From positions 1 through 64,000 of the forward strand of contig JBBISH010000021.1 of the NCBI GenBank assembly GCA_037441385.1: 64,000 nucleotides of DNA, given 5' to 3'. Positions 2,596 to 60,920 of the stretch are shown piece by piece. The notes under the pieces were generated by a model that saw only the letters and a list, made by a program, of their open reading frames with translations, was not told the origin of the DNA and did not search any database. Positions within the stretch are counted from its first letter, which is position 1, and every line of letters begins with the position of its first letter. The translations under genes and the position numbers were made by a program. Origin of the DNA: Myxococcales bacterium (GTDB taxonomy: Bacteria > Myxococcota_A > UBA9042).

Positions 2596-2830
2596 ACTTC
2601 CCTCTGACGCGGGCCACCCGTCCGGCCGGCAGCACGGAGCGTAGCGAATGCCCACAGCCGTGCGCAAACCAAAACCGCCCAGCGCGGGTCCCGCCGGCAA
2701 GCTATTTTCCTCGCCGGTTTGGAATACCCAGTACGTAGGATCTGTTACCCTGTCAGCCGCGCGAGGCAAGACGCGCGTGCTCCGACTTGCCCGATTTCCC
2801 TTCTGCTCGGCCCAAATCGCCAGGATCCCC

Positions 2831-4162: not shown

Positions 4163-4210
4163 TTGGAGCCAGCGCGGATCGGAATCCCCACAGACAAAAG
4201 AGGATCTTGG

Positions 4211-5341: not shown

Positions 5342-5374
5342 CCCCCCCACCGCACCACAGGCAAGCGAGGCCCC

Positions 5375-14474: not shown

Positions 14475-15529
14475 ACCGCGGGATGCGAGCGGCCATGGCG
14501 GTGGCTCTGCTGGCAGCGTGCGCACCGCCCCAACCCAGTCTGTCCGCGCACACGGCTGCGGGACCGGTGCAGGTGCACCCCGTCGCCGCGACGGCTTCGG
14601 GCGGCAGCCGCCTGGCCAAGGCCGTGCCGACCCAAGCTGCTCACGCGGATTCTGCAGCCCCGGCGATACCTTCTGGGTTGCGGGTGCGCACGGTGCGGCA
14701 GTTTGCCTGGGGCAGTGGGCCCAGCCAGCTGGGTCACGTCCACGGCGGTGAACAGAACCCAGAAGCCCCAATGGCGCTCGACGTGGATGCGCAGGGCAGC
14801 GTTTACATTCTGGATCAGGTCAACGAGCGGGTGCTGATCACGCGCCGCGACGGCACGCTGGCCCAGGTGCCCGCGCCGCGCACGGCCCAGGATCTGCTGG
14901 TGGCCACGCCGCAGCTGTGGCTGCTGGATCGGTTGGTCGGCCGCGAATTGCAGCGCGTGGATCTCTCGAACGGGGCCCTTCTGCAGACGTTGCCCCTGAC
15001 GGCCGTCGCCGAGCCGGGCACTATTTCGGCGCTGTGGGCCCACGCTGGCGACCTGTACGCCGAGCTTGGGCACAGCGAATTAGTGCGTCTGGCGCAGCTA
15101 CAGGGGGCAAGCCGGCCGCAGCTCTCGGTTTTTGGCCGGCCAACGCCCGATGGCTTGCGGCGGTTGACGGCGGCGCGCGTGGTGCCCAACCAGGTGACGG
15201 TGCAAGTGCGCCGGCTGAGCGACGCGGACGACGCGCCCCCCGTGCGGGCCCTGCAGGCCACCCTGCCCAGCGATGTGCAGCAGATCGTCGAGCTGGCAGC
15301 CGACGCAATAGGTAGGATCTGGCTGGTCGTCGATCTGGGCGACGCCGCCCACCCAGTGCGGCAAGCCTTGATGTGGGAAGCCGATTTTTCCGATCCCCGC
15401 CGCGCCGATCTGGCCCCTTGGCGCGGCCCCGAAGAGACGCTGCGACCGGCGCGACTGGCGCCAAGCGGTCATCTGTTTGCACTGGGCCTGACGGCCGACG
15501 GCCTTTCGCTGCAAGAGGTGGCGCCATGA
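14471..15529 (+). CDS. Lipoprotein, probable beta-propeller (NHL-like), function unknown
   Basis: Lipobox LLAAC; PMALDVDAQGSVYILDQVNERV NHL-like blade; ATGA coupling on both sides. Confidence 0.72.
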   Translation: MNRGMRAAMAVALLAACAPPQPSLSAHTAAGPVQVHPVAATASGGSRLAKAVPTQAAHADSAAPAIPSGLRVRTVRQFAWGSGPSQLGHVHGGEQNPEAPMALDVDAQGSVYILDQVNERVLITRRDGTLAQVPAPRTAQDLLVATPQLWLLDRLVGRELQRVDLSNGALLQTLPLTAVAEPGTISALWAHAGDLYAELGHSELVRLAQLQGASRPQLSVFGRPTPDGLRRLTAARVVPNQVTVQVRRLSDADDAPPVRALQATLPSDVQQIVELAADAIGRIWLVVDLGDAAHPVRQALMWEADFSDPRRADLAPWRGPEETLRPARLAPSGHLFALGLTADGLSLQEVAP

Positions 15530-17463
15530 TCCGCCGCCTTGCGTACAGTCTGATCTTAGCGAGCCTGCTGGGGCCCAGCCTAGCCTGGGCCAACCCCGAT
15601 CCCATGACGCGCGACCAGATCGTGGCCAACAGCAAGTCGGTGGTCGGCTTCAGCTATTGGTGGGGCGGCGCCGCCTGGGCGCCAGGCTCGTCCAGTAAGG
15701 GCAAGTGCACGCCCAAAGGGTCCAGCGGTTGCCCCAATTGCACCCACAGCGGCTCGTACGGCGCCGATTGCTCGGGCTTTGTCGCCAAGGCTTGGCAAAT
15801 CGACAAGCCCACCGCGCTCGACAAGAACTATCACCCCTATTCCACGTGGCACTTCGACACCTACACCACCTGGTGGACCAAGCCGGCCAAAGGCGACGCC
15901 AAACGGGCCGACGCCTTCAATTACAACAGCAACGGCGCCGGCCACGTGTGGATGTTCGACAAGGGCGACCCGTGGGGCAGCGCCTACGCTTGGGAGTGCA
16001 AAGGCTGCAGCTACGGCTGCGTGTACAATTTGCGCACGGTTTCGTCATATTACGGGCTGATTCGCCGCAAGCTGATCACCGATCCGCCCGCGTGCAAGAA
16101 GCACTGCGAGGGCACCGCCATCATCGACGAGACCTGCGACAAGGGCGATTGCGCAGCCTACGCCGCCAGTTGCGTGGACGACAGCTTGGGTGTGCGCTGC
16201 GTATCGAATTTCTGCCCCGCCAAGGGCAAGACCCAAGTCTGCTTGCCCGATGCCAAGAACGGCAAGATCGCCACATGCGACAACGGCGCACTGAAAGACC
16301 AAGGCAATTGTGGAGCTTACGGGGCGTGGTGCTCCACCGCGTTGGGCGGGGCGGCCAAGTGCGTGTCGGGCCTCTGCGCCACCAGCGCCACGGCCAAGCC
16401 AGTCGCGGGCGACTTGTGCTACAACGGCAAGCGCTACACCTGCGCACCGAGCGGCGACATCGCCGAGGCGCCCTGCCCCGCCGACCAACCATGCCAGACC
16501 GCTGCCGGAAAAACCGGCCCCGGTAGCGGGAGTTGCGGGCCCAAGCCCTGCGGCAACTGCGACGACGGCAACCCTTGCACGGACGACTCGTGCAACGACG
16601 GCACCTGCGTCCATGCTGCCAGCGCAGCCAAGGCTTGCGACGATGGCAATCCCTGCAGCGAGGGCGACGTCTGCGGGGCCGGCACCTGCAAAGGCATGTC
16701 CAAAGTCTGCGACGATGGCGTCGCCTGCACGACCGATAGCTGCGCCGCCGGCGCCTGCGTACACCAAGGCGACGACGTGCAGTGCGACGATGGCAATCCG
16801 TGCACCGCCGACCTGTGCGACAAGTCCGGCTGCAAGCACAACAACCAAGACGGCGCTTGCGATGACGGCGACGGCTGCACGGTAGGCAACGGCTGCAAAG
16901 ACGGCGCCTGCGTCACCGGCACCGCCGCCCGCTGCGACGACGAGAACACCTGCACCCAAGACGCGTGCGAAGAGGGCGGCTGCGTCCACACGCCGCTGAC
17001 CGGCGCGTGCAGCGACGGCAACCCCTGCACAGAAGGCGACTACTGCGCCCAGGGCCAATGCCTGGCCGGCAAGGACAAGGACTGCGACGACGGCTTTGCC
17101 TGCACGGTGGACAGTTGCGAGGCCGGCGGGTGCGTCCACGCGGGCGGCAGCCCGCAAGTGCCGGTTTGCCAAGGCTCCGGCAAGGTGTTCATGCCCAGCC
17201 CCTGCCCCAACGAGCCGGGCCAGGTCCGCATTTGCAGCCCCGGGACCAGTTGCATGACTGGCACTTGCGTGGGCTCCGACGCCGGCAGCAGCGACGGCTC
17301 GGGCAGTTTGGGCAGTTTGGGCGACAGCAACGGCTCCCAAGGCACCAAGAGCGTGGCGGCCGCCAACCCGTCGGGCTGCAGCACAGGCTCCAGCCATCCC
17401 GCCACCAGTCTGGCCCTCGCCGCCGCCGCGCTGATCGTGGGGTACCGCCGCCGTCGGGCGTGA
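15526..17463 (+). CDS. Secreted NlpC/P60-like cysteine hydrolase with Cys-rich CDDGNPCT stalk and MYXO-CTERM-like anchor
   Basis: Signal peptide; YWWGG, ADCSGFVAKAW, GHVWMF...WE; many CDDGNPCTxDxC repeats; C-terminal SGC-hydrophobic-RRRR tail. Confidence 0.78.
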   Translation: MIRRLAYSLILASLLGPSLAWANPDPMTRDQIVANSKSVVGFSYWWGGAAWAPGSSSKGKCTPKGSSGCPNCTHSGSYGADCSGFVAKAWQIDKPTALDKNYHPYSTWHFDTYTTWWTKPAKGDAKRADAFNYNSNGAGHVWMFDKGDPWGSAYAWECKGCSYGCVYNLRTVSSYYGLIRRKLITDPPACKKHCEGTAIIDETCDKGDCAAYAASCVDDSLGVRCVSNFCPAKGKTQVCLPDAKNGKIATCDNGALKDQGNCGAYGAWCSTALGGAAKCVSGLCATSATAKPVAGDLCYNGKRYTCAPSGDIAEAPCPADQPCQTAAGKTGPGSGSCGPKPCGNCDDGNPCTDDSCNDGTCVHAASAAKACDDGNPCSEGDVCGAGTCKGMSKVCDDGVACTTDSCAAGACVHQGDDVQCDDGNPCTADLCDKSGCKHNNQDGACDDGDGCTVGNGCKDGACVTGTAARCDDENTCTQDACEEGGCVHTPLTGACSDGNPCTEGDYCAQGQCLAGKDKDCDDGFACTVDSCEAGGCVHAGGSPQVPVCQGSGKVFMPSPCPNEPGQVRICSPGTSCMTGTCVGSDAGSSDGSGSLGSLGDSNGSQGTKSVAAANPSGCSTGSSHPATSLALAAAALIVGYRRRRA

Positions 17464-17617: not shown

Positions 17618-18769
17618 ATGGATCTGCAACTGACCGAAACTCAAGAAATGATTCAGGAAACCGCGCGCTCCTTTGCCGAAAAGGAGTTGCTGCCGGCCGC
17701 CCACGACACCGACAAGCTCGGCCAGTTCCCGCGCGACAAAGTCAAGAAGCTGTGCGATCTTGGGTTCTTTGGCATGGCCGTGCCCGAAGAGTTCGGCGGC
17801 GCCGGCCTGGACAACCTCAGCTACGCGATCGCCATGGAAGAGATCAGCCGCGGCTGTGCGTCGACCGGCGTGATCATGAGCGTGAACAACTCGCTGGTGT
17901 GCGACCCGATCCTCAAGTTTGGCAACACCGCGCAAAAGAAGAAATTCCTTGGTCAATTGGCGCCAGGCAAGGTCCTGGGCTGCTTTGCGCTGAGTGAGCC
18001 CGGCTCGGGCAGCGACGCCGCCGGCATGCGCACCACCGCGATTCGCGACGGCGACCACTACGTGGTCAACGGCACCAAGAACTGGATCACCAACGGCAAA
18101 GAGGCCGACTTCTGCGTGCTCATCGTCCACACCAACCCCGCCGAGCGCCACAAGGGCATCAGCGCGCTGGTGGTCGACCGCCGCGAGAGCCCCTACGGCA
18201 TCGGCAAGGTCGAGGACAAACTGGGCATCAAGGGCAGCTCCACCACCTCGCTGGTGTTCGAGAACTGCCGAGTTCCCGTGGAGAATCTGCTGGGCAAAGA
18301 GGGCGACGGCTTCAAGGTGGCCATGTCGACGCTGGACGGCGGCCGTATCGGCATCGCCTCGCAGGCCCTGGGCATCGCCCGCGCCGCCTTTGACGAAGCG
18401 CTGCGCTACAGCCGCGAGCGCCAGGCCTTTGGCAAGTACATCGGTGACTTTGGCGCCATCCAAGAGATGCTGGCCGACATGGCCTGCGAGCTGGACGCGG
18501 CGCGGCTGCTGATTTGGCGGGCGGCGGTGGCCAAGGACTCGGGCGAGAAGTTTGGCAAGCTGTCGGCCATGGCCAAGCTGTACGCCAGCGAGGCCAGCGC
18601 GCGCATCACCCACAAAGCGCTGCAAATTCACGGCGGCTACGGCTACGTGAAGGAGTACAACGCCGAGCGGCACATGCGCGACGCCCGCATCACCGAGATC
18701 TACGAAGGCACCAGCGAGATCCAGCGCCTGGTCGTCGCCCGCGAGACCCTGATGGAACTGGGCGCATAA
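17618..18769 (+). CDS. Acyl-CoA dehydrogenase (short/branched-chain type)
   Basis: FALSEPGSGSD, NGTKNWITNG, KLGIKGS, QIHGGYGY, IYEGTSEIQR. Confidence 0.96.
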   Translation: MDLQLTETQEMIQETARSFAEKELLPAAHDTDKLGQFPRDKVKKLCDLGFFGMAVPEEFGGAGLDNLSYAIAMEEISRGCASTGVIMSVNNSLVCDPILKFGNTAQKKKFLGQLAPGKVLGCFALSEPGSGSDAAGMRTTAIRDGDHYVVNGTKNWITNGKEADFCVLIVHTNPAERHKGISALVVDRRESPYGIGKVEDKLGIKGSSTTSLVFENCRVPVENLLGKEGDGFKVAMSTLDGGRIGIASQALGIARAAFDEALRYSRERQAFGKYIGDFGAIQEMLADMACELDAARLLIWRAAVAKDSGEKFGKLSAMAKLYASEASARITHKALQIHGGYGYVKEYNAERHMRDARITEIYEGTSEIQRLVVARETLMELGA

Positions 18770-18784
18770 CCTCTGGGGGTCGCA

Positions 18785-19930
18785 ATGGATTTCACACTCT
18801 CCCTCGCCGATCGCGAAGTGGTGGACCTGGTCAAGCGTCTGGCCCAGACCGAGCTGGCGCCGCGCGCCGCCGCGGTGGACGCCGGGCAATTTCCGCTGGA
18901 AGGCCTGAAGATCCTGGCTCAGCACGGCTTGATGGGCATCAAGGTCGCCAAGAGCTACGGCGGTTTGGGCGCCGGCCTGGTGGCGCATGTGGCGGCGATT
19001 CGCGAGCTGGCGGCGGTGTGCCCGTCCACGGCGGTGACGCTGGCCGTGACCAACATGGTCGCCGACATGATCGAGAAGTTCGGCAGCGACGCGCAGAAGC
19101 AGCGCTATCTGCCGCCGATTTTTGATGGGACCTACCCCGCGGCCTCGTTCGCCCTGTCCGAGACCGGGGCCGGCTCCGACGCGGCCAGCCTGCGCACCCG
19201 GGCCGTAAAGGTCGACGGCGGCTGGCAGATCACCGGCAGCAAGATGTGGATCACCTCGGGCGACCGCGCCGGCGTGGTGCTGGTGATGGCCAAGACCGAC
19301 CCCGACAAGGGCGCGCGCGGCATCACGGCCTTCTTGGTCGAGCCGGGCACGCCGGGCTTCGAGGTGGGGCGCCACGAAGAAAAGCTGGGGCTGCGCGGAT
19401 CTTCCACGGTGTCGCTGCACTTCAGCGAGATGTTCGTGCCGGAGTCGGCGCAGCTGGGCGCCCTGGGCCAGGGCTTCGAAGTGGCGATGGTGGCGCTGGA
19501 TGGCGGCCGCTGCGGCATCGGCGCGCAGGCGCTGGGCATGGGCTACGCCGTGCTGGCCGAGACCGCCAAGGCCTTGAACCAGCGCGCGACGTTGGACAAG
19601 CAGCTGGGCCTGGACCAAAACGCCCAGTTCCGCCTGGCCGACATGGCGACCAAGCTGGACGCTGCGTGGCTGCTGGTGCTGCGGGCGGCCTGGCTGCGCG
19701 ACGCGGGCAAAAAGATGACGCGCGAGGCGGCGATGGCCAAGGTCATGGCCACCGAAGCCGGCGACGCTGCGTGCAAGCTGGCGCTGCAGATCCTGGGGCC
19801 GGCGGCGCTGGATGCCCGCCACCCGGTGGCGCGGGCGCTGCGCGACGTGCGGGTCAGCCGCATCTACGAAGGCACGAGCGAAATTCAGCGGTTGGTGATT
19901 GCGCGGAGCTTGGCCGCCAGCGTGGCCTAA
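18785..19930 (+). CDS. Acyl-CoA dehydrogenase
   Basis: FALSETGAGSD, GSKMWITSG, KLGLRGS, IYEGTSEIQR. Confidence 0.94.
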   Translation: MDFTLSLADREVVDLVKRLAQTELAPRAAAVDAGQFPLEGLKILAQHGLMGIKVAKSYGGLGAGLVAHVAAIRELAAVCPSTAVTLAVTNMVADMIEKFGSDAQKQRYLPPIFDGTYPAASFALSETGAGSDAASLRTRAVKVDGGWQITGSKMWITSGDRAGVVLVMAKTDPDKGARGITAFLVEPGTPGFEVGRHEEKLGLRGSSTVSLHFSEMFVPESAQLGALGQGFEVAMVALDGGRCGIGAQALGMGYAVLAETAKALNQRATLDKQLGLDQNAQFRLADMATKLDAAWLLVLRAAWLRDAGKKMTREAAMAKVMATEAGDAACKLALQILGPAALDARHPVARALRDVRVSRIYEGTSEIQRLVIARSLAASVA

Positions 19931-19948
19931 GTGCGGAGGGGGGTTCAC

Positions 19949-20389
19949 ATGGAGCAACAGACGACGGCGCGGCGCGGGCGCATCCTGGTGGGCAAGGTGG
20001 GGCTGGACGGGCACGACCGCGGCGCCAAGGTGGTGGCGCGGGCGCTGCGCGACGCCGGCTTCGAGGTCATCTACACCGGCCTGCACCAAACGCCCGAGAT
20101 GGTGGTCAATACGGCCATCCAAGAGGACGTGGACGTCATCGGCATCTCGATTTTGTCGGGCGCGCACAACACGCTGGTGCCGCGAGTCCTGGGGCTGCTG
20201 GCCGAGCGCGGCGCCAAAGATATCGCCGTGTTTGTGGGCGGGATCATCCCCGACCAAGACATGACTGCGCTGCGCCATGCAGGCGTGGCCGAGATTTTCA
20301 CACCGGGCGCGTCGCTGGATGCCATCGTGGCGCGGGTGCGCGGCCTGCTGCAAGAGCGCGGCGTGTCGCTGTTGGGCGCGGAAGCCTAA
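19949..20389 (+). CDS. Cobalamin-binding subunit of an acyl-CoA mutase (methylmalonyl/isobutyryl-CoA mutase small subunit)
   Basis: [10 protein letters not shown] (DxHxxG), SILSGAH, GGIIP, FTPG; GGAGGG SD. Confidence 0.93.
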
Positions 20390-20404
20390 TTCCTAAGGTG
20401 GACC

Positions 20405-21496
20405 ATGCAGTTCAAACCCAGTGACGACGACAAGATGCTGCTGGAGGCGGTGCGCGCCTTGGCCGATGGGGCGCTGCGCGAGGGCGCCGAAAAAGGCGAC
20501 CGCGACGGAACGGCGACGCCCAAGGCCCTGAAGCACTTGGTCGAGTTGGGCGCCTTTGGCCTGCAGGCTCACGACCGCCTGGGCGGTCTGGCGCTGGGCC
20601 ACGTGGCCACGGCCGCAACCCTGCAAGTGCTCGCGGCGGCGGACGCGGGCTTGGCGATGCTGCTGGTGCACCATGGCGCGGCGCTGGCCCTGCTGCAAAT
20701 GGCCGGCTTCGAGGGCAAGGTGCTGGCGCAACTGGCCAAAGGTCAGCAACTGGCGTGCTTGAGCAGCGGGGACCTGGGCGTCCATCCCGATGCCGTGCAA
20801 AGCCCGATTGCTGCTAGCGAAACGACGTCGGGTTGGGTCTTGAACGGTCGCCAAGGCTGGCTGCTGGGCGCTGGGCTGGCGCACCTTGCCGTGCTTCAGG
20901 CCGAGACGGACCAAGGCCCGCGCTACTTTGCCGTGGCGATGGATCACGCGGGAGCGGCGCGAGCGGCGGCGGGCGAGCAGTTGGGGCTGCGCTCGGCGGC
21001 TGCCCAAAGCCTGCAACTGACAGATTGTCCTGGCACATTGCTGGCCGCGGTGGACGATCGGGCGCTGGCGACGCAGCTGCAGGTACAAACCGCGGCCGTG
21101 GCCGTAGGGGTCGCGCAAGCTGCGCTCCAGGCGGCCTGCAAGTATGCCAATCAACGCGAACAGTTCGGCAAGCCGATCGCCGCGCTCCAGCCCATCCAGT
21201 GGCAGGTGGCCGACGCCGCCACCGCGATCGACGCCGCGCAACTCCTGATGCAGCAAGCGGCTTGGCAGCTGGAGGCCGGACACAAGGCGGCGGCCCAGTC
21301 GGCGCGTATGGCGTTGGTCAAGGCTCGCGAGGCGGCCGTGGCGGCCAGCGACAAGGCGATCCAGATTCACGGCGGCTACGGCTACACCAAGGATTTCCCC
21401 GTCGAGCGCGCCTACCGCGATGCGATGGTGCTGGGCGTTCTGCACGGATCGAGCGCGGCACACAAGGTGGCGCTGGTGCGGGCGCTGGTGGCCTAG
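20405..21496 (+). CDS. Divergent acyl-CoA dehydrogenase-family protein, probably non-catalytic
   Basis: REQFGKPI and IQIHGGYGY...VERAYRDA retained; catalytic IYEGT replaced by VLHGS. Confidence 0.85.
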   Translation: MQFKPSDDDKMLLEAVRALADGALREGAEKGDRDGTATPKALKHLVELGAFGLQAHDRLGGLALGHVATAATLQVLAAADAGLAMLLVHHGAALALLQMAGFEGKVLAQLAKGQQLACLSSGDLGVHPDAVQSPIAASETTSGWVLNGRQGWLLGAGLAHLAVLQAETDQGPRYFAVAMDHAGAARAAAGEQLGLRSAAAQSLQLTDCPGTLLAAVDDRALATQLQVQTAAVAVGVAQAALQAACKYANQREQFGKPIAALQPIQWQVADAATAIDAAQLLMQQAAWQLEAGHKAAAQSARMALVKAREAAVAASDKAIQIHGGYGYTKDFPVERAYRDAMVLGVLHGSSAAHKVALVRALVA

Positions 21497-24700: not shown

Positions 24701-25567
24701 GGCACGATCTGGTTGCAGGGCGCGGGCTGCGGCGGTCTGATCCGCGTCGACCCCGCCACCAAGACCGTGACCAAGAAGGATCAGTTGCCCAGCCTTGCTT
24801 ATCCAGCGGGCGCCTACGGCATCAATGTGGACCCCAAGGGCCGCATCTGGGTGGCCGCCGGAAACTCGGCCTCGGTCTACACACCAACCACCCAGCAATG
24901 GAAGGTCGTCAACATGCAGTGGGGAGGCGGCCGCGGCCTAGCGACCAGCGACGATGGCAACATCTACGTCGCGGTGGACGGGTCGGGCGGTGCGGTCAAG
25001 ATCAACGGCAACGTGGACCCGCCGCAAGTGGTTGGCTTCATGAAGGGCGCGGGTGGGCCAGTCGGCGCGGCCCTGGACTACGACGGTTTTGTCTGGGTGG
25101 TCAACCAGAGCGGGTCGAGCACCACCAAGCTGGACCCCAAGTCCATGGCCGCCGTGGGCAGCGTGCCGGTCGGCAACTCGCCGTACACCTACTCGGATAT
25201 GACCGGCTACGGGCTGCGCTTTGTCGGGCCGCAGGCCAAGCAGGGCAGCTGGGTCAGCACCTTCTACGTGCCCACCGCGCTGGGCCCCTACGCCAGCGTC
25301 AGCCAGGTCAGTTGGACCGCGATCAGCGTGGATGTCAGCGTACCCAGCGGCGCGACCGTGCAGCTCAAGACCGCGCCGACTCAGGCGACCTTGGCGCAGA
25401 TGAGCTGGAGCGCGCCGGTTCCGTTTGGCGGCGGCAAGGCATTGAACCTGAGCGCCGTGGGCGCAGTCACGGGGCCGTGGCTGCAGGTGCAAGTGACGAT
25501 GCAGAGCGACGCCAAGAACGGCACGCCGGTGTTGCAGGGCGTGACGGCGACGGCGACCGTCAAGTAG
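21710..25567 (+). CDS. Large Cys-rich surface lipoprotein with a myxobacterial disulfide repeat and a C-terminal beta-propeller; start uncertain (21752 or 21803 possible)
   Basis: Lipobox LASC; Cys-dense repeats; CGDGKVNQSGEQCDDGNKTDGDGC (DUF4215-like); LWIAN...PSRTAVD...PYTYSDMTG propeller. Confidence 0.82.
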   Translation: MPGAGPLGALFRGPMPAACSSRHANNRPLGRVQSLAWAAWVVVLAQGLALGLASCGDPQEAKPQLVATDTANATSDAVTAGLDGDASGPGTGSGDTAQADAAAPGPCKTNSDCANPTPVCDPLTNLCAQCLFDSECGGGQHCDNKVCTTVTVCKNSLDCATAQGPTGAALPICDAGLAQCVQCSSTQDCPEHNHCLGHTCQPYTPCANSIDCGADQVCDTDQGSCVQCLGDNDCGKSELCEGGICRPYVACASDKQCTPLGMLCDAKLGKCSECKQHSDCPDAYHCAPTGVSGTGQCVLDACKAGLGACVANAKILCTLVGDGYGAAEECPGSSTCTVVAGKPTCKAWACQPGVHCQGDVLVECSGDGFAVLGSQNCTLGGQLCVADACQDAVCSPGTLICQGNTVSQCSADGQSATAVKLCGATQFCADGLCQAQICSPGKPVCDGNVVKTCNSEGSGASTAAGKDCGDLKCIGGTCKAPICVPNKTFCEGNQIHICAADGYSGVLVKECGSSAVCQGGSCKPLICKPNESLCQGNFANLCNATGTDFAGPGVDCGTSKCVAGMCQNQLCPPASLFCEGGKLKTCSADGLSIGSEKACASGTYCGVGSDGTAQCLANKCSPGAVSCSGTTIVACNGEGSGYLPGGTDCASKGQICVGGACSSLQCDPKILLYCSGSVVMMCDGSGMKPTAIQTCSSMEYCSNGTCFVKVCTPGAPACSGDLATTCNAVGDGYVGAKVDCKAQGKVCSAGACVSVTCGDGKVNQSGEQCDDGNKTDGDGCSLGCQVEATCNPACPLGLTCQSDGSCAKPCSGADCAIQGGGLLPKPVAGLIPSGAGVSIAGVAMGAQLPNLWIANSPNNTVSRVDTKSLQEIGRYNVCPDPSRTAVDFDGNAWIACRGDGAVAKIIANKKSCVDKNGNGSIETSTNSQPVANDECIQFIAQPNKGTYARAIGIDRDNYPWVGYWNTASLVRLDKDTGAKLDDIALGCQPYGLVIDQQGTIWLQGAGCGGLIRVDPATKTVTKKDQLPSLAYPAGAYGINVDPKGRIWVAAGNSASVYTPTTQQWKVVNMQWGGGRGLATSDDGNIYVAVDGSGGAVKINGNVDPPQVVGFMKGAGGPVGAALDYDGFVWVVNQSGSSTTKLDPKSMAAVGSVPVGNSPYTYSDMTGYGLRFVGPQAKQGSWVSTFYVPTALGPYASVSQVSWTAISVDVSVPSGATVQLKTAPTQATLAQMSWSAPVPFGGGKALNLSAVGAVTGPWLQVQVTMQSDAKNGTPVLQGVTATATVK

Positions 25568-27368
25568 CGGTGGGGGGCATCGCCCCGGCCCCCGGCAACC
25601 GCGCCAGCCAGAACCCCTCTAGCACCTCGTCGACCTGCCCGCCGTACGCCACCGCCATCTGCCGCGACGCCTGAACCAACGCAGTACGTCGGACCCCTGC
25701 GTCCCGCAGGTTCGTATTCCGCAGGAGGTCCGCGGCCTTCTGCCAGGCCTGGCGGTCGCCGGGCAACGGCAAGGCGGCCACCTGCTTGGCGCTGAGCTTG
25801 AGCGCGGTCGCCGCCAGTGCCGTTCCCGCGTGGCGTTGCCAGGCCAGCGCCGACACGGTCGCACAGCACAGAACCGCAGCAAGGCGCCAGACATCCAGAG
25901 GATCGTGGGGAATGACCGCCAAGGTCGGCGTGGTGTTCAGCCACTGGCCAGCCGCGTCGACCGCCGCCTCGATGACCTTGCTTTGCGTCGCCACCACCAA
26001 CTTGGGCACGCGCCGTCGCTCGGCCCACTTGGCCAGCTTGGGGCAACCGGCGCGCAGGCGGGCGAGATCCACGGCCGGGTAATGGAACTCGGCTTTCGCG
26101 AAGCGGATTTTCAGGGCACCCCAGCGGCAAACCAGCGGATCGATATGGCTCGTCACCAGCAGCGGGGCCAAGTCGGCCGCGGACTGCGGCGCCTCGATCA
26201 CGTAGGGTTGGATGCCGTAGTACTCGTCGCGGAAATCCGCGGTCACCTGGGCAAGGTCGCCGACCAGGCCGGCGTCTGCCACTGCCACTGCTGGCACGCC
26301 CAGAGCCGCAGCCAACAGCGGCGACCACGATGGTCCCGGCGCCTGGGCGGTCAAACGCTGATCTTTATAGAGAATTTGCACAGTCGCCGCAGCCGTCGCC
26401 CCAGCAGTCAACAGGGGTGCGCAAACGTCGACCGCGGCGCCGCCAAAGTCCACCGCCAGCCCCAGAAAAACGGCCTGCAACGGCGCACGCGCGCTCAGCA
26501 ATTCCCGCACACCCTGGGCATCGCGGGTCGACAGCAGGCTCAGCGGTTGCAGCAGCGCCAACCGCCCGTCCGGGCGCAGCCAGTCCAAACTGCGGGCCAA
26601 AAACAGGGCCGAAGTATCGGTATACGGGCCCACGGCCCCGCCCAGCTGCTGCAGCACCCGGGTGTGGTCCGCCCGCGACCGCACCGTCGCGGCCTTCAGT
26701 TGCCCAAGAAACGGCGGGTTGCCCACCACGGCCGCCATAGGCACCGGCGGCTGCAACAAGAAATCCCCCTGCCACAACACGGGTTCGCCCTGCCCTTGCG
26801 CCAGCCAGCGTAGCGAGGCACGGCACACTTGCAGCGCCGCGGGTTCCAGGTCGCAACCGTGCAGGCTCACCATGGTTCTTGGCCACGGATCCGGCACTTG
26901 CAGACTCTGCCACGCCGCGTGCAGCCGCTCTGCCGCCGCAACCAAGAACGCGCCCGCGCCACAACTTGGGTCCAGCACGCGCACCGCCGCCAGCTCGGCC
27001 CGCGGGTCGCTGGCCAAGAGGGCCCGGTCGATCAGCGGCTGCAACGCCCAGTCCAAAAGCGTGGCCACCAGCGCAGTGGGTGTGTAGAAGGCTCCCAAGC
27101 GCGTGCGAGCACTGGCATTTTCGCCAGCTTCGGCCAGCTCAAGCCAGGCTTGCAGCAGCGCGCTCCAGCGCTCTGGCCCAGGCTGCGACCACGCCCCGCT
27201 CGCCGGCAGCAGGCGCGCAAGCCAGGAATCGTCTTGGTGAACTTGGCAGTCGTGCTCGATCAGCGCTGCGACCAAGGTCCGATGACGCACGCCGGGATCC
27301 ACTTGCGGCAGGGCCGCCCAGACCGCCGCCGCCAACTTGCGCAGGGCTTTGAGATCGCGGGCGTTCAC
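25560..27368 (-). CDS. Orphan N6-adenine DNA methyltransferase (gamma class, TaqI/Eco57I-like)
   Basis: GAFYTP, VLDPSCGAGAFL (motif I), GNPPF (motif IV), C-terminal PKLVVA target-recognition-like region; no nuclease motif seen. Confidence 0.85.
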   Translation of the reverse strand: MNARDLKALRKLAAAVWAALPQVDPGVRHRTLVAALIEHDCQVHQDDSWLARLLPASGAWSQPGPERWSALLQAWLELAEAGENASARTRLGAFYTPTALVATLLDWALQPLIDRALLASDPRAELAAVRVLDPSCGAGAFLVAAAERLHAAWQSLQVPDPWPRTMVSLHGCDLEPAALQVCRASLRWLAQGQGEPVLWQGDFLLQPPVPMAAVVGNPPFLGQLKAATVRSRADHTRVLQQLGGAVGPYTDTSALFLARSLDWLRPDGRLALLQPLSLLSTRDAQGVRELLSARAPLQAVFLGLAVDFGGAAVDVCAPLLTAGATAAATVQILYKDQRLTAQAPGPSWSPLLAAALGVPAVAVADAGLVGDLAQVTADFRDEYYGIQPYVIEAPQSAADLAPLLVTSHIDPLVCRWGALKIRFAKAEFHYPAVDLARLRAGCPKLAKWAERRRVPKLVVATQSKVIEAAVDAAGQWLNTTPTLAVIPHDPLDVWRLAAVLCCATVSALAWQRHAGTALAATALKLSAKQVAALPLPGDRQAWQKAADLLRNTNLRDAGVRRTALVQASRQMAVAYGGQVDEVLEGFWLARLPGAGAMPPTAT

Positions 27369-27859
27369 GTAGCCAGCTCGTCGGCAAAGACCACGTCAGC
27401 GCGCGGGTAGCTGGCCGTGCGGCCAGTCGGCAGCTTGACCCGCACCTGCTGCTCGCGGGCGATGAGCGCGGTGGCCAGTGCGGTCGCGCGGTCGCCGGTG
27501 GGCAGGAGCACAGGTCGGCCTGCCACGGCGTAGTCCAGCGCACAAAACTCAATCGGCTCGGGCCGTTCCTCTTCGCGTGTGCGCAGCCACACCTGGTCAA
27601 AATCGCGCTCGCCTACCTTCCAGGTCCAATCGCCCACGCTGTCGTCGCGGCGACCGGTGACCACCAGCGACACGCGATCCTGGACTTGCAGCGTCGCCAC
27701 CACATCGTTCCAGGCCGCCTGCGCGGCGGTCTCTAGCTCCAAATGGCGGCGGTGCTCGTACAGCCAGTCGGCCGTGCGCAACACCAGCGACCGATCGCGC
27801 GGCCCGTCCAGCGCCAACCAGTCGACCAGGTCGGCGAGGTGAAAACGACTGAAATCCAT
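27365..27859 (-). CDS. Hypothetical protein (164 aa)
   Basis: Fills the gap between permease and methyltransferase; GTGA overlap with the MTase; no family recognised. Confidence 0.6.
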   Translation of the reverse strand: MDFSRFHLADLVDWLALDGPRDRSLVLRTADWLYEHRRHLELETAAQAAWNDVVATLQVQDRVSLVVTGRRDDSVGDWTWKVGERDFDQVWLRTREEERPEPIEFCALDYAVAGRPVLLPTGDRATALATALIAREQQVRVKLPTGRTASYPRADVVFADELAT

Positions 27860-27865
27860 AGAGAC

Positions 27866-29143
27866 CTACGTGTGCGACAGCGCTTCCACCGGCCGCAGCA
27901 ACGCCGCCCGCCACGCCGGGTACACCGCCGCGATCGTCGCCCCACCGCAGGCCAGCAGCACGACCAGCAGCGCCTCGGGCCAGGTCACAAACGGGTGCAG
28001 ATGCAGCAACCCGCCGCCGGGCGCGGTGAATTCGATGCCGCGCTGGCCCAGCGTTCGCACGATCAGGGTGCCACCGGCCAGGCCTGGCAAAGCCGCAGCC
28101 GCCGCAATGATGGCGGCTTCGGCCAAAATCAGCAGCACAATCTTGGACCTGCGCATTCCCAGGGCGAGCATGACGCCGATCTCGCGGGTGCGCTCCAGCA
28201 CGCTCATCAGCATGGTGTTGACGATGCCTAGCAGGGCCACCACCATCAAGATCGCCGTGACAATGCCCAACACGCGGTCCTGCAACGCCGTCGCCTCGGC
28301 CACGGTGCGCGCAAGGTCCTTCCAGGTCGAGATTTCGTAGTCCTTGCCCAACGCCGCTTGCAGCCGATCGCGAACCGCGTCGACCTGGGCGATGTCCTTG
28401 ACCGACACGGCCAACTCGGTCGCCTTGCCTTCCATGCGCAGCAGCTCTTGCGCGTGGCGCAGTTGCAGCACCCCCAAGCGCGTTTCCAGCCCCGGCGAAC
28501 CTGGCAGACCGTTCAGCCCCACTACGTGCGTGTCCACGGCGTTCAGGCTGCCCTCGCGGTCGTTGCTGAGCACGGCCACCCGCCCGGCGTCGCCCGCGTC
28601 GATTTTCGCGCCCAGCCGGCGGGCCAACTCGGCCGACAGCACCAGGCCGTCCTTCTCGTCGGGCTTCATCAACCGCCCCGAGGTCAGGCGATCCGGCCGC
28701 AGCGGGCATACTTGCGCCTCGGCCGCGGGGTCGATGGCGGTGAGCAGCGAAAAGGTGGTCTGTTCGCCCACCGACACCAGCGCACCAAAGGCAATGCGCG
28801 GCGCCACGGCTTGCACACCCTCGACGGCGCGCACCTTGTCCAAGAACGCCTGATCCGCAGCAAAATCCAGGTCCAACGGCGTGCCGATGATCTTGGCCAG
28901 GTAGCCAGCGCGGTGAATTTGAATGGCGCCAATTTGCGAGGCAATCGCCTCTTGCCGAAGGGCTTGCTGCAGGCCGTTGAGCGCCCCGCGCAGCGAAGTG
29001 ACCGCCAGGACGCCCAAGAGCACCGACAGTCCGGCCAGCAGGGCCCTGCGTTTGTTGTGGCCGATGTTGCGCGCGGCAAGCTGGACGAGCCGCAGCACCA
29101 GCCGGAATTTCGAGGTCGACGGGACGGCGGCGGGCTGGGACAA
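27866..29143 (-). CDS. ABC transporter permease, FtsX/MacB/LolE-like
   Basis: LAARNI..NKRR N-terminal TM, large periplasmic domain, GIVNTMLMSVLERTREIG, PAWRAA..PVEAL. Confidence 0.92.
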   Translation of the reverse strand: MSQPAAVPSTSKFRLVLRLVQLAARNIGHNKRRALLAGLSVLLGVLAVTSLRGALNGLQQALRQEAIASQIGAIQIHRAGYLAKIIGTPLDLDFAADQAFLDKVRAVEGVQAVAPRIAFGALVSVGEQTTFSLLTAIDPAAEAQVCPLRPDRLTSGRLMKPDEKDGLVLSAELARRLGAKIDAGDAGRVAVLSNDREGSLNAVDTHVVGLNGLPGSPGLETRLGVLQLRHAQELLRMEGKATELAVSVKDIAQVDAVRDRLQAALGKDYEISTWKDLARTVAEATALQDRVLGIVTAILMVVALLGIVNTMLMSVLERTREIGVMLALGMRRSKIVLLILAEAAIIAAAAALPGLAGGTLIVRTLGQRGIEFTAPGGGLLHLHPFVTWPEALLVVLLACGGATIAAVYPAWRAALLRPVEALSHT

Positions 29144-29168: not shown

Positions 29169-30638
29169 TTACGGTTTGGTTGCGCTGGGTTCAGCGGGCA
29201 ATGGCGCCGCGGGCCCGGCTGCGTCGGCAGCGAGAAGCGGCGTCACGGCGGCTTGGAAGTCCTCGGCATCGGGGCCGACCAGCCGCCGCATTAGCTTGCC
29301 ATCTTGACCGAAGACGTCGATGACGGGCAACCCCGGCGCGTCGGGCAGGAATTTCGCCCACTCGGGCGGCTCCCAAGCCGTAGCATCCACCCGCGCCACT
29401 GCAACCTGCGGATGTTCCTTGGCGTACTCTTCTAGCCGCGGGCCCAGCTTCATGCACGGCGCGCACCACGTGGCCCAGTAATCCACTAGCGTGATCTTGC
29501 CGGGCACGACCAACGCAGCGATCTCGGCCACTTGTGCGGCCTTGCCGATCACGGCCGTGGACGGCGGGGGCGGCGGCGCTGGCTTGGCGCCAAAGCCGAA
29601 CGAACCCGACACCGTCATGAAAAAGGCCGTGTTCTGTACCGCTTGCTGGCCGTTCACGTACTCGTAGGCCGGCTGACGCGCCGCCAGGGTCACCGAGATG
29701 CCGTCGATCGGCGTGGAGCTCACGCTGGGCGTCAGGTACAGGGCGGTGCCCCCGCCGTTGGGATAGGCGATGCGGTCGCCGCTCTCTGGCGAGAGGTAGG
29801 TCGCGTCGCCGCGGTGCTGCAGGTCGGCACTGGCTGCCACACTCAAGTACTTGTCGATGATGGTAAAGCGGGCGCCCAGGCTGCCGCGCATCTCGGAACC
29901 CCAGCCAAAGCCGTCGACCGCGTAGCCCAACGGCTGGCGGTACTGGACGTTGCCGTAGAACATCAGCCGGGTCATGGCGGTGTAGTTCGCGTCCAGATCG
30001 CCGATCAGCCACCACACGCCGCGGCCGATCGACACGTCGCGGTTGCCGGTGGCGTTGGGGTCGCTCTGGCCGGCGATGTAGGTCTTGGAAGCCCCCGGCG
30101 CCGCCAGGTACTTGCCGGTGTTGGCCACCACGCCAAAGGTCGCGCCAAGCCGCGGACCGCTCAGGCTCAGCGCTTGCGACAGATCTTGTCGCAACCGCAC
30201 TTCGGTGTCGGCCAGTCCACTCTCGGTCACGCCCTGGCTGTCATTGCGCTGGAACTGGATGAAATTGTCGTCGCGCCACAGGCTGACCCACGGCACCACC
30301 ACGGTTAGTCCCGTGCCCCACGGCGAGTCCACACCGGCGGTCAACGTGACCAGGCGCATCTTGACCTGCAATTGCAGGTAGTTCTGCACGCTACTGGGTG
30401 GGCCGGTATAGGGCACCAGCTGCGACCCTTCCTTCAGGGTGTCGATCGTGGAGTAGTAGTACAGCAAACCGGCGCGCGCCCGCCATTGGCCTTGGCCGGC
30501 ACCGTTGTCACTCGAAACGTTCAGGGCGTCTCCCACCGGGAGCGACGGGTTGGTTCAGGTGGCACATTGAGCCCAAACGGGCCCAGCGCTTCCCAGCACC
30601 AGCGTCGCTACGGCGATCACCCATAGGTGACGCAACAT
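29169..30638 (-). CDS. Predicted selenoprotein (Sec at codon 28, CATU): signal peptide, outer-membrane beta-barrel-like domain, C-terminal thioredoxin domain (489 aa)
   Basis: AAGGAA SD (30650-30645), ATG 30638, MLRHLWVIAVATLVLGSAGPVWA-QCAT, in-frame TGA at 30557-30555, then continuous into the 455-aa ORF; amphipathic strands ending FMTVSGSFGF; Pro linker; DYWATWCAPC. Confidence 0.75.
30527..30554 (-). promoter_or_regulatory. Candidate bacterial SECIS element
   Basis: mRNA UGA-ACCAACC-CGUCGCUCCC-GGU-GGGAGACG: bulged 8-bp stem with a G-initiated GGU apical loop 17 nt after the UGA. Confidence 0.6.
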
Positions 30639-30653
30639 CGCATGTTCCTTGGT

Positions 30654-31973
30654 CTACTTGAAGTAGGGAGCCAGCGTCGCAGCCATACCGCCGGCGGGGG
30701 CGCCATTGAACTTCTTTAGGATTTTGAAGGTCTTGGCGTCGATAATCATGTTCAGGGGCGTCGAGCCCGCCGTGTTGAACGGCGACACGTTCTTTTCAAA
30801 GTCGACGCCCGTCGCGCCCACGCCGCCCAGCTTCTTGATCCAGTTGCGGGCAAGGTCCAGCTTGGCCGGGGTGTTCTGGGTAGCGCCGTCGAAAAGCACC
30901 TGGTAGATGCCCAGCTTGGGATAGGTCTTGAGCAACTGCTTGAAGCCGGTGGTCTCTTCCTGGCAGGGGCCGCACCAGCCGGCCGCCACGTTGAACAGGA
31001 TCACTTTGAAGTCGTTCTTGGCCGCGTACTCTTTGAACGTGATGCGCTTGGCGGGCTCGCCGGCGCCGTCGGCGGTGGTCAGGATGCTGCCGTCGCCGTC
31101 GTTGTCGGTGTAGCCAACGATGGCGAAATCGGTAAAGGTGTCGTTGGTTTCCATGGTGCCGTGCAGCGAGGCGACGCACTTGGGCTGCTTTTGGTCGGCC
31201 GGCACGCACTGCTTGGGCACGCTGGCGCTGCTGGAGATCTGCTCGCACGAGTAGCCGTCGGGGCAGGTGCTGCCGTCGCACGGCGCTGAGCAGAACTGCT
31301 CGCCGGAGTAGGTAAAGGTGAGGCAGAAGCCGCCCTCGCCGCAGGCGCCGGTGGCCGAGCACGACGAGCACAGGCTGCCGTCGCCCTGGCAGGTGCCGGC
31401 GGTGTGTACACAGGCCATACCGCCCTCGTCCACGTCTTGGCACACCGCGTAGCGCGGGCAGCCCGTCTTCTTGGCGCAATCGCGCGAGCAGTACTTGCCG
31501 TCGCCCATGGTCACGCACCGGCCACCGGCGCCGCATTGGGCGTCGTCGCTGCACTGCGAGCAGAAACCGCGCGGCTGGCAAAATTGCTGGCCAGCCTTGC
31601 CCAGGCAGCGGTAGTCGGCTGGGCAGTCGGCGTCGCCGCCGCAGGCCACGGTGCAGATCGCCGAGGCCGAATTGGGGTCACCAACGCATTGGACATCATT
31701 GGAGGGGCAGTCGATGTCGCCCGCGCAGGGCACGCCCATATTGGCCGAGAACGTCTTGGGGCCGCTCGAGTCCGTTGCCCCGGCGTCGCCGGTCACGACG
31801 GTGCCGCCGCCCAGCTGCGCGCCCATGCCGATGTCGTCGCCTTGTTTGCTGGTTGCGCTGGCGCCCGAGCTCTGCGCATCGCAGCCCGCCAAGGTCAACC
31901 CCACCGCGGCCAACCCCACCGCGGTCACGGCGGCCAAGGTGGCCACGAACTGCTTGCCTACCAAAGAAATCAT
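30654..31973 (-). CDS. Lipoprotein with a Cys-rich domain and a C-terminal TlpA-like thioredoxin domain
   Basis: GAGGA SD, ATG 31973, lipobox LAGC, Cys-rich repeats, FNVAAGWCGPC, cis-Pro STPLNMIID. Confidence 0.85.
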   Translation of the reverse strand: MISLVGKQFVATLAAVTAVGLAAVGLTLAGCDAQSSGASATSKQGDDIGMGAQLGGGTVVTGDAGATDSSGPKTFSANMGVPCAGDIDCPSNDVQCVGDPNSASAICTVACGGDADCPADYRCLGKAGQQFCQPRGFCSQCSDDAQCGAGGRCVTMGDGKYCSRDCAKKTGCPRYAVCQDVDEGGMACVHTAGTCQGDGSLCSSCSATGACGEGGFCLTFTYSGEQFCSAPCDGSTCPDGYSCEQISSSASVPKQCVPADQKQPKCVASLHGTMETNDTFTDFAIVGYTDNDGDGSILTTADGAGEPAKRITFKEYAAKNDFKVILFNVAAGWCGPCQEETTGFKQLLKTYPKLGIYQVLFDGATQNTPAKLDLARNWIKKLGGVGATGVDFEKNVSPFNTAGSTPLNMIIDAKTFKILKKFNGAPAGGMAATLAPYFK

Positions 31974-32126
31974 GCTGTCCTCACTGTTACTTTCTGGCTC
32001 AAATGCTGGCTGGGCTTGCCGGATCGGCAGCCTGGATGTGCGGAATTGAGTCCGGTTTGTGCCGACTTGGAGCGTACTGGCGACGCCGCGGCCCAAACTA
32101 TTAGGTTACTGCGACACAACCCGTCT

Positions 32127-35800: not shown

Positions 35801-35844
35801 GCGGGCTCCGCTCTGGCTTGGCCGGGCGGAGCCTCGCCATTTTT
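35801..35844 (+). terminator. Probable intrinsic terminator
   Basis: GGCTCCGCTCTGGC-TTG-GCCGGGCGGAGCC hairpin followed by a T-run, just after the stop at 35788. Confidence 0.55.
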
Positions 35845-35871
35845 GACCGCGGCGACCATTCCGAGGCCAAC

Positions 35872-36477
35872 GTGGTACTTCTCAATCGAATCTACACGCG
35901 TACCGGCGACGACGGCAGCACCGGCTTGGTCGGCGGCGAACGCGTGGGCAAAGACGACCTGCGCATCGAGGCCTATGGCACGGTCGACGAGCTGAACGCC
36001 TGCATCGGCCTGGTGCGCGACGCCAACACGCGCCACCAAAGCGACGCCGAGGCGCGGGAGCAGCTGGATGGGCAATTGCTGAACATTCAGCAGCGGTTGT
36101 TCGATCTGGGGGCGTCGCTCGCGACTCGGCCGGACAGCCGCCGCCCAGGGCAGCCCTGCCCCACGGCCAGCGACATTGCCTGGCTGGAGCAGACCTTGGA
36201 CGCCATGAACGCCGAGCTGCCGCCGCTGAATTCCTTTGTGCTTCCAGGAGGTGGGCCGATCGCCGCCCCGCTGCACCTGGCGCGGACGGTGTGTCGACGC
36301 GGCGAGCGCGCCACGGTGCGCCTGGGCCGCCACGAAGCTGTAGAGGACGCGGACGTCAAGTACTTGAACCGCTTGAGCGATTGGCTGTTCGTCGCCTCGC
36401 GGTGGGTGGCCAAGCGGTCGGGTGAGCCTGAGCCGCTGTGGGCGCCTTGGGCAGAAAAGCCCAGCGCGAACCCGTAG
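35872..36477 (+). CDS. pduO: ATP:cob(I)alamin adenosyltransferase, PduO type
   Basis: IYTRTGDDG, RIEAYGTVDELN, LFDLG, FVLPGG, RTVCRRGER, YLNRLSD. Confidence 0.94.
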   Translation: MVLLNRIYTRTGDDGSTGLVGGERVGKDDLRIEAYGTVDELNACIGLVRDANTRHQSDAEAREQLDGQLLNIQQRLFDLGASLATRPDSRRPGQPCPTASDIAWLEQTLDAMNAELPPLNSFVLPGGGPIAAPLHLARTVCRRGERATVRLGRHEAVEDADVKYLNRLSDWLFVASRWVAKRSGEPEPLWAPWAEKPSANP

Positions 36478-60838: not shown

Positions 60839-60920
60839 GATGCAACTCCGACGATGGGTCGGGGACGTTGTGCTTGGGGTTGTGAGGGCCCCCGGGCGGA
60901 TCGTTCGGGAAGCAAGGTTA

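Follow-up and report, generated by a model that had tools for sequence, protein, structure and literature searches.

An in-frame TGA followed by a conserved hairpin points to a myxobacterial selenoprotein family with an outer-membrane barrel and a tethered thioredoxin

Introduction

Can a stop codon hide the true start of an exported protein? The question is raised by a locus on contig JBBISH010000021.1 of a Myxococcales bacterium (GenBank assembly GCA_037441385.1). We analyzed positions 1 to 64,000 of this contig, a 64-kb stretch hereafter called the window, and all coordinates are window positions. On its minus strand lies an open reading frame (ORF) of 455 residues that ends in a thioredoxin domain. 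An earlier reading of the letters alone, made without database searches and called the sequence-only reading below, proposed that the gene starts further upstream and passes through a TGA codon translated as selenocysteine (Sec, U). Herein, we followed up this proposal by comparing homologous loci, folding the RNA, modelling the protein and surveying the neighboring genes. In the full explanation that we favor, positions 30638 to 29169 likely constitute one gene for an exported selenoprotein, in which an outer-membrane β-barrel carries an N-terminal C-x-x-U motif and a C-terminal thioredoxin domain.

Results

An upstream start and a signal peptide in frame with the 455-residue ORF

The mechanical ORF list starts the 455-residue ORF at GTG 30536, which is codon V35 in the numbering used here. 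Its product begins with MGDALNVSSD and lacks a hydrophobic leader, in agreement with the earlier remark that this ORF has no signal peptide. Reading upstream in the same frame through one TGA had been said to reveal a ribosome-binding site, a start codon and a leader. All three (AAGGAA, ATG 30638 and the leader) are present in the sequence. Translation of the minus strand with TGA as U gave a frame of 489 codons from ATG 30638 to TAA 29171-29169, with TGA 30557-30555 as the sole internal stop. The hydrophobic leader MLRHLWVIAVATLVLGSAGPVWA is followed by Q-C-A-T, the TGA and then TNPSLPVGD. The layout is as follows.

30645 to 30650, minus strand: Shine-Dalgarno-like AAGGAA, 6 nucleotides (nt) 5' of ATG 30638-30636, read from the sequence
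29169 to 30638, minus strand: whole gene of the probable selenoprotein, 489 codons plus the TAA stop, codon 28 being a TGA read as Sec; homologous loci have the same layout
30570 to 30638, minus strand: signal peptide, residues 1-23, with a predicted signal peptidase I cut after V-W-A, read from the sequence
30555 to 30566, minus strand: redox motif C25-A-T-U28 (TGT GCC ACC TGA), with the putative Sec codon at 30557-30555

The annotated 455-residue ORF is the part of the selenoprotein gene that lies downstream of the Sec codon.

The TGA is conserved among homologues and aligns with cysteine

Homologous loci came from one genome scan anchored on the peptide DYWATWC, and the 57 loci obtained are therefore a sample biased towards close relatives. 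We counted the N-terminus in 53 of them, leaving out three at contig ends (L039, L047 and L054) and one in which the thioredoxin motif is off-pattern (L043). The redox codons of these 53 loci, all in Myxococcota metagenome-assembled genomes, read C-x-x-TGA in 51, TGA-x-x-TGA in one (L057) and C-x-x-TGC in one (L019). The TGA at the position of codon 28 was present in 52 of the 53, over a range of protein identity to the window protein of 26-89%. The predicted mature N-terminus Q-C-A-T-[TGA], that is, CxxU, was thus found in the window as described and recurs as C-x-x-TGA throughout nearly all of the family.

The sequence on both sides of the TGA was conserved as well. A hydrophobic leader ends just before Q-C in all 53 loci, its last residues together with the motif reading A-Q-C or a close variant, and A23 and Q24 are conserved at a level of at least 90% in the family alignment. 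Downstream of the TGA, N-P-x-L-P-x-G follows, and no further stop occurs up to the thioredoxin motif in the 53 loci. Residues 29-34 (T-N-P-S-L-P), which lie between the TGA and the GTG, are kept in frame among the loci. Five loci (L010, L011, L023, L051 and L056) lie on Myxococcota-type contigs whose records are titled, for example, 'Klebsiella pneumoniae' or 'uncultured Enterobacteriaceae bacterium'; these taxonomic labels look wrong. The locus with TGA at both redox positions (L057:226-1752, U-A-G-U) is followed by a gene whose product has weak, below-cut-off matches to cytochrome c.

A protein search returned 40 homologues, all from Myxococcota-type metagenomic sources. In 37 of them the annotated start lies after the TGA position (exactly at the V/M-G-D codon in 15, and at the codon next to the TGA in 3). 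The three full-length homologues (P0012, P0013 and P0028) have a signal peptide followed by Q-C-A-[TS]-C. We also ran a profile of the mature N-terminus and barrel against 1.84 billion representatives, which matched 1655 proteins at E <= 1e-3, 422 at E <= 1e-10 and 66 at E <= 1e-30. Among the 66 best hits, 19 contained the whole N-terminus, and every one of these 19 had CxxC. Most of the others begin at residue 1-16 within the first 60 profile positions. Such starts inside the profile are what gene calling at the TGA would yield, although some may be fragments at contig ends. Altogether, CxxC occupied the motif position in 25 of 25 Cys-form homologues that we read (L019; P0012, P0013 and P0028; and 21 more from the profile search).

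The in-frame UGA is conserved among orthologues, then, with conserved coding sequence on both sides, and Cys homologues align to it. Comparing homologues at codon 28 had been proposed as a check on the sequence-only reading. The outcome favored it, with TGA in 52 of 53 loci, Cys in the full-length database forms and a conserved hairpin downstream. TGA also serves as a stop codon in the window, where it ends 13 of the 46 predicted ORFs. By the same ORF heuristic the commonest stop is TAG (26 of 46) and TAA ends 7; such an order is unusual for a genome of about 66% G+C, and mistaken ORF choices may account for part of it.

A conserved hairpin lies downstream of the TGA

The RNA past the UGA folds into a structure that resembles a bacterial selenocysteine insertion sequence (SECIS).

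30526 to 30546, minus strand: SECIS-like hairpin with the stem CUCCC/GGGAG (30542-30538 with 30534-30530), a GGU loop, a bulged A and a short lower stem, from RNA folding; it covers codons S32-D37

The fold consists of an upper stem of 5 base pairs around GGU, a bulged A and 2-3 further pairs, and the core CUCCC-GGU-GGGAG is encoded by codons L33-P34-V35-G36-D37. A bulged hairpin with a GGU loop had been reported 17 nt after the UGA. The hairpin itself stood, and the spacing needed correction: the loop begins 17 nt past the UGA and the upper stem begins 12 nt past it. The minimal SECIS element of Escherichia coli fdhF has a spacing of 11 nt. Among the hairpins of the family the apical loop is GGU, GGC or GUC. 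Passages of PMC1088965 describe a small G-containing apical loop immediately downstream of the UGA as a common feature of bacterial SECIS elements.

We aligned 50 distinct sequences, each comprising the TGA and 45 nt, without gaps. Pairs 16-28, 17-27, 18-26 and 19-25 were standard in 49-50 of the 50 sequences, with U-A changed to U-G in four. Pair 15-29 was G-C in 20, U-A in 14 and unpaired in 16. The observed covariation score exceeded all 500 column shuffles, a control that overstates significance since the sequences are related, so that its outcome is not a probability.

Other hairpin results were less favorable. RNAalifold retained only the 4 invariant pairs and reported no two-sided changes; a clear two-sided change was seen in one pair only, and the peptide L-P-x-G is itself conserved. 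Because of this peptide conservation, most stem positions cannot covary freely. The window hairpin had an energy of -8.4 kcal/mol (z = 0.40), and 122 of 200 shuffles of this GC-rich sequence folded as well. Folding, which had been suggested as a check, thus gave a mixed outcome: the hairpin forms, and its single-sequence stability is no better than that of shuffles. What goes beyond chance is the conservation of the hairpin and its fixed synonymous sites, not the stability of the single sequence. Rfam matched no family anywhere in the window.

The synonymous sites were examined by comparing codon use inside and outside the hairpin. In 51 of 52 genes the 5' arm uses CTC for its Leu, vs 30.5% elsewhere in the same genes, and CTG, which accounts for 48% elsewhere, never occurs there. 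The Gly codon of the 3' arm is GGA in 48 of 52 and GGG in the other 4. Elsewhere in the same genes GGA makes up 7% and GGC 64%, and GGC never occurs in the arm. The fixed choices are those that retain the C18-G26 and U17-A27 (or U-G) pairs. This synonymous-site constraint is a stronger argument for a SECIS element than pair conservation or covariation.

The hairpin also followed the codon form. L-P was in register in 52 of 52 Sec forms vs 3 of 25 Cys forms. The Cys form at L019 reads NPAFASGD, without L-P and without the hairpin. The most distant member (L057) has a different hairpin in the same place, CCUUCCC-GUC-GGGAAGG. On this evidence, the identification of the hairpin as a SECIS element that would decode the UGA at codon 28 as Sec is strongly supported. 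The exported selenoprotein put forward by the sequence-only reading has gained a conserved TGA, aligned Cys homologues, and a conserved hairpin at SECIS spacing with constrained synonymous sites. Judged from these sequence comparisons, the locus is very probably a genuine Sec gene.

A predicted β-barrel carries the thioredoxin domain

The predicted mature protein comprises four segments.

30486 to 30569, minus strand: residues 24-51, the mature N-terminal segment that precedes the first strand; a candidate lumen or plug segment, placed by analogy with Pput2725 and FapF
29592 to 30485, minus strand: 12-stranded β-barrel, residues 52-349, from the AlphaFold2 full-length model and Foldseek
29517 to 29591, minus strand: proline-rich linker, residues 350-374, containing KPAPPPPPSTAVIGK, read from the sequence and unstructured in the model
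29214 to 29516, minus strand: thioredoxin domain, residues 375-475, with the WCAPC active site at 29454-29468, from the PF00085 match

The only Pfam match of the window protein was PF00085 (Thioredoxin) at residues 380-456, with 41.5 bits vs a cut-off of 23.5. PF00085 was matched by 52 of 52 family members, and D386-Y-W-A-x-W-C-x-P-C, which contains the WCAPC active site, does not vary among family members. The stretch KPAPPPPPS stands between the β-rich region and this domain. The proposed C-terminal WCAPC thioredoxin on a poly-Pro tether therefore holds, on the PF00085 score and on a linker that is read in the sequence and is unstructured in the model. NCBIfam 20.0 gave the window protein weak thioredoxin-type hits only.

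The AlphaFold2 model of the full-length protein, built on a 52-sequence alignment, had a mean predicted local distance difference test score (pLDDT) of 83.9 and a predicted template modelling (TM) score (pTM) of 0.72. It contained 12 long strands and a confident thioredoxin fold at 375-475, so that the barrel-and-thioredoxin architecture, for which structure prediction had been the suggested check, was reproduced. Residues 11-50 were poorly defined, with 10-residue block means of 43-54 and a pLDDT <50 at 16-29 and 39-47. A second run on the mature N-terminus and barrel gave a pLDDT of 82.1 and a pTM of 0.82; its residues 1-30 had block means of 46, 47 and 66, and the pLDDT was <50 at residues 1-6 and 15-24.

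Foldseek against the Protein Data Bank placed FapF first (E = 1e-12; TM-score 0.68 by query and 0.78 by target) and the COG4313 channel 4rl8 second (E about 1e-10; 0.62 by query and 0.73-0.75 by target). FadL, autotransporter barrels and others followed far behind. The barrel had been called porin-like; a 12-stranded barrel is indeed modelled, and it is more precisely described as FapF/COG4313-like. We consider an outer-membrane barrel with a periplasmic thioredoxin very likely.

Second-tier barrel relatives with A-H-H at the mature N-terminus were also noted. P0102, P0105, P0106 and P0172 are about 335-350 residues long (P0172, 449) and have a signal peptide, A-H-H replacing Q-C-x-x-C/U, and a conserved G-C near the C-terminus. 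They may represent a metal-binding N-terminus in the same barrel family.

A redoxin partner gene adjoins the barrel gene and is itself a predicted selenoprotein gene in some lineages

A second gene lies directly upstream of the barrel gene.

30654 to 32096, minus strand: partner gene, its stop 15 nt before the ATG of the barrel gene and its true start probably at ATG 31973; from the ORF, Pfam and tblastn

The product is a lipoprotein (lipobox LAGC) with a cysteine-rich domain of about 30 invariant Cys and a C-terminal thioredoxin-fold domain with GWCGPC. Its Pfam matches (AhpC-TSA, Thioredoxin and Redoxin) are weak. Of the 53 loci, 48 have a homologue of the partner redoxin beside the barrel gene; it lies downstream in 27, precedes the barrel gene on the same strand in 17, and is divergent in 4. 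Clades differ in the N-terminal domains of the partner, and in the loci labelled Kofleriaceae and Myxococcaceae it is a short lipoprotein with little beyond the redoxin domain.

In 23 of 51 loci the active site of the partner reads F-U-x-x-C-R-S-Q, with U encoded by TGA, which makes it a predicted UxxC selenoprotein (L027-L054, downstream of the barrel gene, e.g. L029:7353-7790 and L036:7228-7881). A hairpin GGUCCCA-(GGC/GGU/GUC)-UGGGACC lies 10 nt past this UGA in the minimum-energy folds of 21 of the 23, and the remaining two sequences (L047 and L054) have these conserved arms as well. The Cys forms of the partner (WCxxC) have no such hairpin. Sec would be used in both the barrel and the partner at 20 loci, and in the barrel alone at 27. 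Gene callers would truncate the Sec-form partner genes too. The barrel and partner genes are unrelated, yet each has an in-frame TGA where a redox Cys is expected, and their hairpins are of the same style. Sec decoding in these organisms is therefore hard to doubt, although no sel gene was found in the window. The mechanism of Sec insertion would be the ordinary bacterial one.

Other features of the window and of the family loci

A permease gene follows the barrel gene.

27866 to 29143, minus strand: LolC/E-like FtsX-family permease gene, 25 nt past the barrel stop; Pfam FtsX and MacB_PCD, with NCBIfam lolCE below cut-off

By tblastn, the permease adjoins the barrel gene only in the two closest loci (L001 and L002), and it lies about 3.7 kb downstream in L003. 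After it, at 25560-27859 on the minus strand, come an N6 DNA methylase-like gene (602 residues) and a 164-residue ORF that belongs to no known family. Only L002 shares this end of the gene row.

Elsewhere in the window, Pfam identified an RND efflux operon at 2648-8596 (plus strand), consisting of an outer-membrane factor (OEP), an HlyD/CusB-type adaptor and an AcrB-family pump. Three large proteins with Dicty_CTDC (Dictyostelium-type cysteine-rich) repeats are encoded at 15373-17463 (plus strand), 57878-60958 (minus strand) and 60921-63995 (minus strand); two of the three have lamin-tail domains too, the tail of one ORF overlapping the head of the other. Three acyl-CoA dehydrogenase genes lie around a gene for a small B12-binding-domain protein at 17618-21496 (plus strand), and a cobalamin adenosyltransferase gene lies 14 kb from this cluster at 35818-36477 (plus strand). 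Among the family loci, tandem peptide repeats occur in frames just upstream of genes: MTTQASR in L020 (about 5700-5940) and MSRA in L048, upstream of the partner gene.

Discussion

The locus is most likely a real, mis-annotated selenoprotein gene of a sizeable myxobacterial family, which combines a new architecture with a conserved and sometimes Sec-containing redox partner. Besides the unfavorable hairpin statistics and the bias of the locus sample, several results weigh against our interpretation. In the 64-kb window, to which our data on this genome are confined, the tRNA scan found no tRNA and Pfam found no sel gene among the 46 ORFs. A tRNA scan of the 57 family loci found no tRNA-Sec, the sole tRNA being a tRNA-Ala in L005. 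All homologues derive from metagenome-assembled genomes. The N-terminal segment is of low confidence in both structural models, and its placement in the lumen is therefore by analogy only. The thioredoxin domain is not obligatory for the family, as barrel-only Cys-form relatives of 316-380 residues do without it; because such forms exist, we regard the N-terminal CxxC/U and the barrel as the core of the family and the thioredoxin as an addition. Finally, the window protein has no match to PF13557, the Pfam family of its second-best structural match, at E <= 0.1. A scan of the window for other read-through TGAs produced 11 sites, all lacking a convincing Cys-adjacent motif; as its thresholds also missed the true TGA, the scan is uninformative.

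How else could the TGA be explained? A nonsense mutation, a pseudogene lesion or a sequencing error in the window is contradicted by the recurrence of TGA at this codon, in an otherwise intact frame, in 52 of 53 independent loci drawn from many assemblies, and its probability is practically negligible. Alternatively, there could be two cistrons, an upstream ORF of 27 codons that ends at the TGA and the 455-residue ORF from GTG 30536. The annotation that gene callers gave to 37 of 40 homologues agrees with this. However, the downstream product would be a β-barrel with no signal peptide and the upstream one a signal peptide followed by QCAT, with no protein to export, T-N-P-S-L-P between the TGA and the GTG is conserved in frame, and the Cys forms are continuous ORFs; we find this arrangement scarcely credible. 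It might also be argued that the UGA is read through with another residue, by near-cognate insertion of Trp or Cys or by a lineage-wide reassignment of TGA, given that our analysis shows that the frame continues and not which residue is inserted. Against this stand the termination of 13 of 46 predicted window ORFs by TGA, the alignment of the position only with Cys in homologues, the conserved hairpin at SECIS spacing, and a second gene of the same lineages with UxxC and a similar hairpin. In addition, a tRNA-Sec has been reported in the cultured myxobacterium Archangium gephyra, according to an excerpt of PMC5441343. Read-through without Sec is thus very improbable.

A further alternative concerns the function and leaves the Sec assignment as it is. 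The C-x-x-U motif could primarily bind a thiophilic metal or metalloid, such as Cu(I), Hg(II) or the products of selenite or tellurite, in an uptake or detoxification channel, with the thioredoxin and the redoxin lipoprotein only keeping the ligands reduced. The most distant member, L057, has UxxU and an extra C-terminal Cupredoxin_1 domain (35.8 bits vs a cut-off of 27). The A-H-H of the second-tier barrel relatives P0102, P0105, P0106 and P0172 looks like a set of metal ligands. Several selenoproteins with CxxU, UxC or CU in the excerpted Table 1 of PMC13188914 are metal transporters or binders. However, the cupredoxin fusion occurs in 1 of 52 members, and no genes for metal resistance or metal uptake lie beside the gene in the window or among the scanned neighbors. 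We regard a metal site as possible but somewhat unlikely.

Returning to the exported selenoprotein with a tethered thioredoxin, we compared it with known systems. Proteins of the COG4313 family have been linked to the uptake of hydrophobic compounds. As the match to 4rl8 indicates, COG4313/PF13557 (Phenol_MetA_deg) channels have a 12-stranded barrel fold like that of the window protein. Some relatives of the window protein reach the PF13557 cut-off of 22 bits (P0106, 24.6; P0065, 22.6; the L037 member, 22.1). Because only relatives do so, we describe the barrel as having a COG4313-like fold, without assigning it to that family. We know of no COG4313 protein with a Cys/Sec motif at the mature N-terminus or a fused thioredoxin. 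FapF (5o65, 5o67 and 5o68) is the best structural match, but the sequence identity is 13-14%. FapF has an N-terminal coiled coil, whereas the window protein has none and has 28 mature residues before the barrel. FapF also lacks the redox motif and the thioredoxin domain, and neither the window ORFs nor the scanned neighbors of the family loci included fap genes. The resemblance to FapF is one of fold only, and we do not place the protein in that family.

Two Sec-containing outer-membrane β-barrels are listed in the literature: the FCYXU-type TonB-dependent receptor (NF049945), which has CxxU, and the GSU2204 MtrB/PioB-family barrel (NF041027) (PMC13188914 and PMC12013277, excerpts). Their folds differ from that of the window protein, the receptor being 22-stranded, and neither has a fused thioredoxin. 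Among the selenoprotein models of NCBIfam release 20.0, including NF049945, NF041027 and NF041199, none matched the window protein, and the sole listing was TsoB (E = 0.048; 11.7 bits vs a cut-off of 805). Periplasmic thioredoxin-fold relays (TlpA/ResA/DsbE, fed by DsbD or CcdA) keep periplasmic Cys pairs reduced. The fused domain and the partner scored weakly, below cut-off, against models for TlpA, DsbE, ResA and thioredoxin. In contrast to those relays, the predicted reductase here is covalently tethered to an outer-membrane barrel and its target would contain Sec; Pfam on the 43 other window ORFs found no DsbD or CcdA, and no sel genes. The best NCBIfam hit of the partner redoxin domains was NF053656, 'TUGYCR motif thioredoxin fold (seleno)protein' (32-48 bits vs a cut-off of 100). 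The motif F-U-x-x-C-R of partners in other lineages resembles TUGYCR, whereas the window partner (GWCGPC) had no hit at E <= 0.1.

We propose the following mechanism. Both ends of the 12-stranded barrel would be periplasmic. By analogy, C-x-x-U may sit in the channel or at its mouth, the mature Q-C-A-T-U lying 28 residues before strand 1. We place it there because the residues preceding strand 1 enter the lumen from the periplasm in both of the closest solved structures. In Pput2725 of Pseudomonas putida (4rl8) the 14 residues ahead of strand 1 block the lumen from the periplasmic face (PMC4493636, excerpt), and in FapF, the 12-stranded secretion channel for Pseudomonas functional amyloid, a 13-residue N-terminal helix plugs it from the periplasm (PMC5557850, excerpt). 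C-x-x-U would cycle between a selenenylsulfide and a reduced selenol/thiol, which would be a strong nucleophile. In the oxidizing periplasm, the tethered thioredoxin domain may keep C-x-x-U reduced and may itself be fed by the neighboring redoxin lipoprotein (CxxC here, UxxC in other lineages). The reduced Cys/Sec pair could then act on cargo that passes or enters the channel, as a redox gate, as a catalyst, or as a capture site for a very thiophilic metal or metalloid. We infer the step from thioredoxin to CxxU with roughly even confidence. The complete picture, in which this would be the first outer-membrane barrel whose lumenal plug carries a Cys/Sec center wired to a relay from lipoprotein redoxin to tethered thioredoxin to C-x-x-U, is put forward tentatively, as a speculative possibility.

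The sequence-only reading did not recognize this architecture as a described family, and our searches agree. No NCBIfam selenoprotein model matched, and no row in the excerpted Table 1 of a 2026 review of prokaryotic selenoproteins (PMC13188914) corresponds to the family. The nearest ideas in that excerpt are the FCYXU TonB-dependent receptor, the GSU2204 MtrB/PioB barrel and a Trx7/PDZ protein. No description of the family was found in the full texts searched; it could be listed in supplementary tables of selenoprotein surveys. The same full-text searches found no paper on Myxococcota selenoproteins.

The finding corrects a systematic annotation error. In public databases the closest homologues go by the name 'thioredoxin family protein', and their annotated starts lie past the Sec codon, so that an exported barrel is recorded as a leaderless cytoplasmic thioredoxin. 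The bacterial selenoproteome gains a family of 66 representative clusters at E <= 1e-30 and 422 at E <= 1e-10. Taken together, the hairpins of the barrel and partner genes define a SECIS consensus specific to these lineages (a C-rich 5' arm, a 3-nt loop with G first, and a G-rich 3' arm, 10-12 nt past the UGA), which could help to find further selenoproteins in these genomes. The unusual architecture, with an N-terminal Sec/Cys, a plugged 12-stranded barrel, a tethered thioredoxin and a redoxin partner, would make for a testable outer-membrane redox chemistry. If the proposed mechanism is true, these bacteria would have a thiol/selenol pathway that takes reducing power to or through the outer membrane, to gate a channel or to reduce or capture an external substrate, and some lineages would use selenocysteine at two consecutive steps of the relay.

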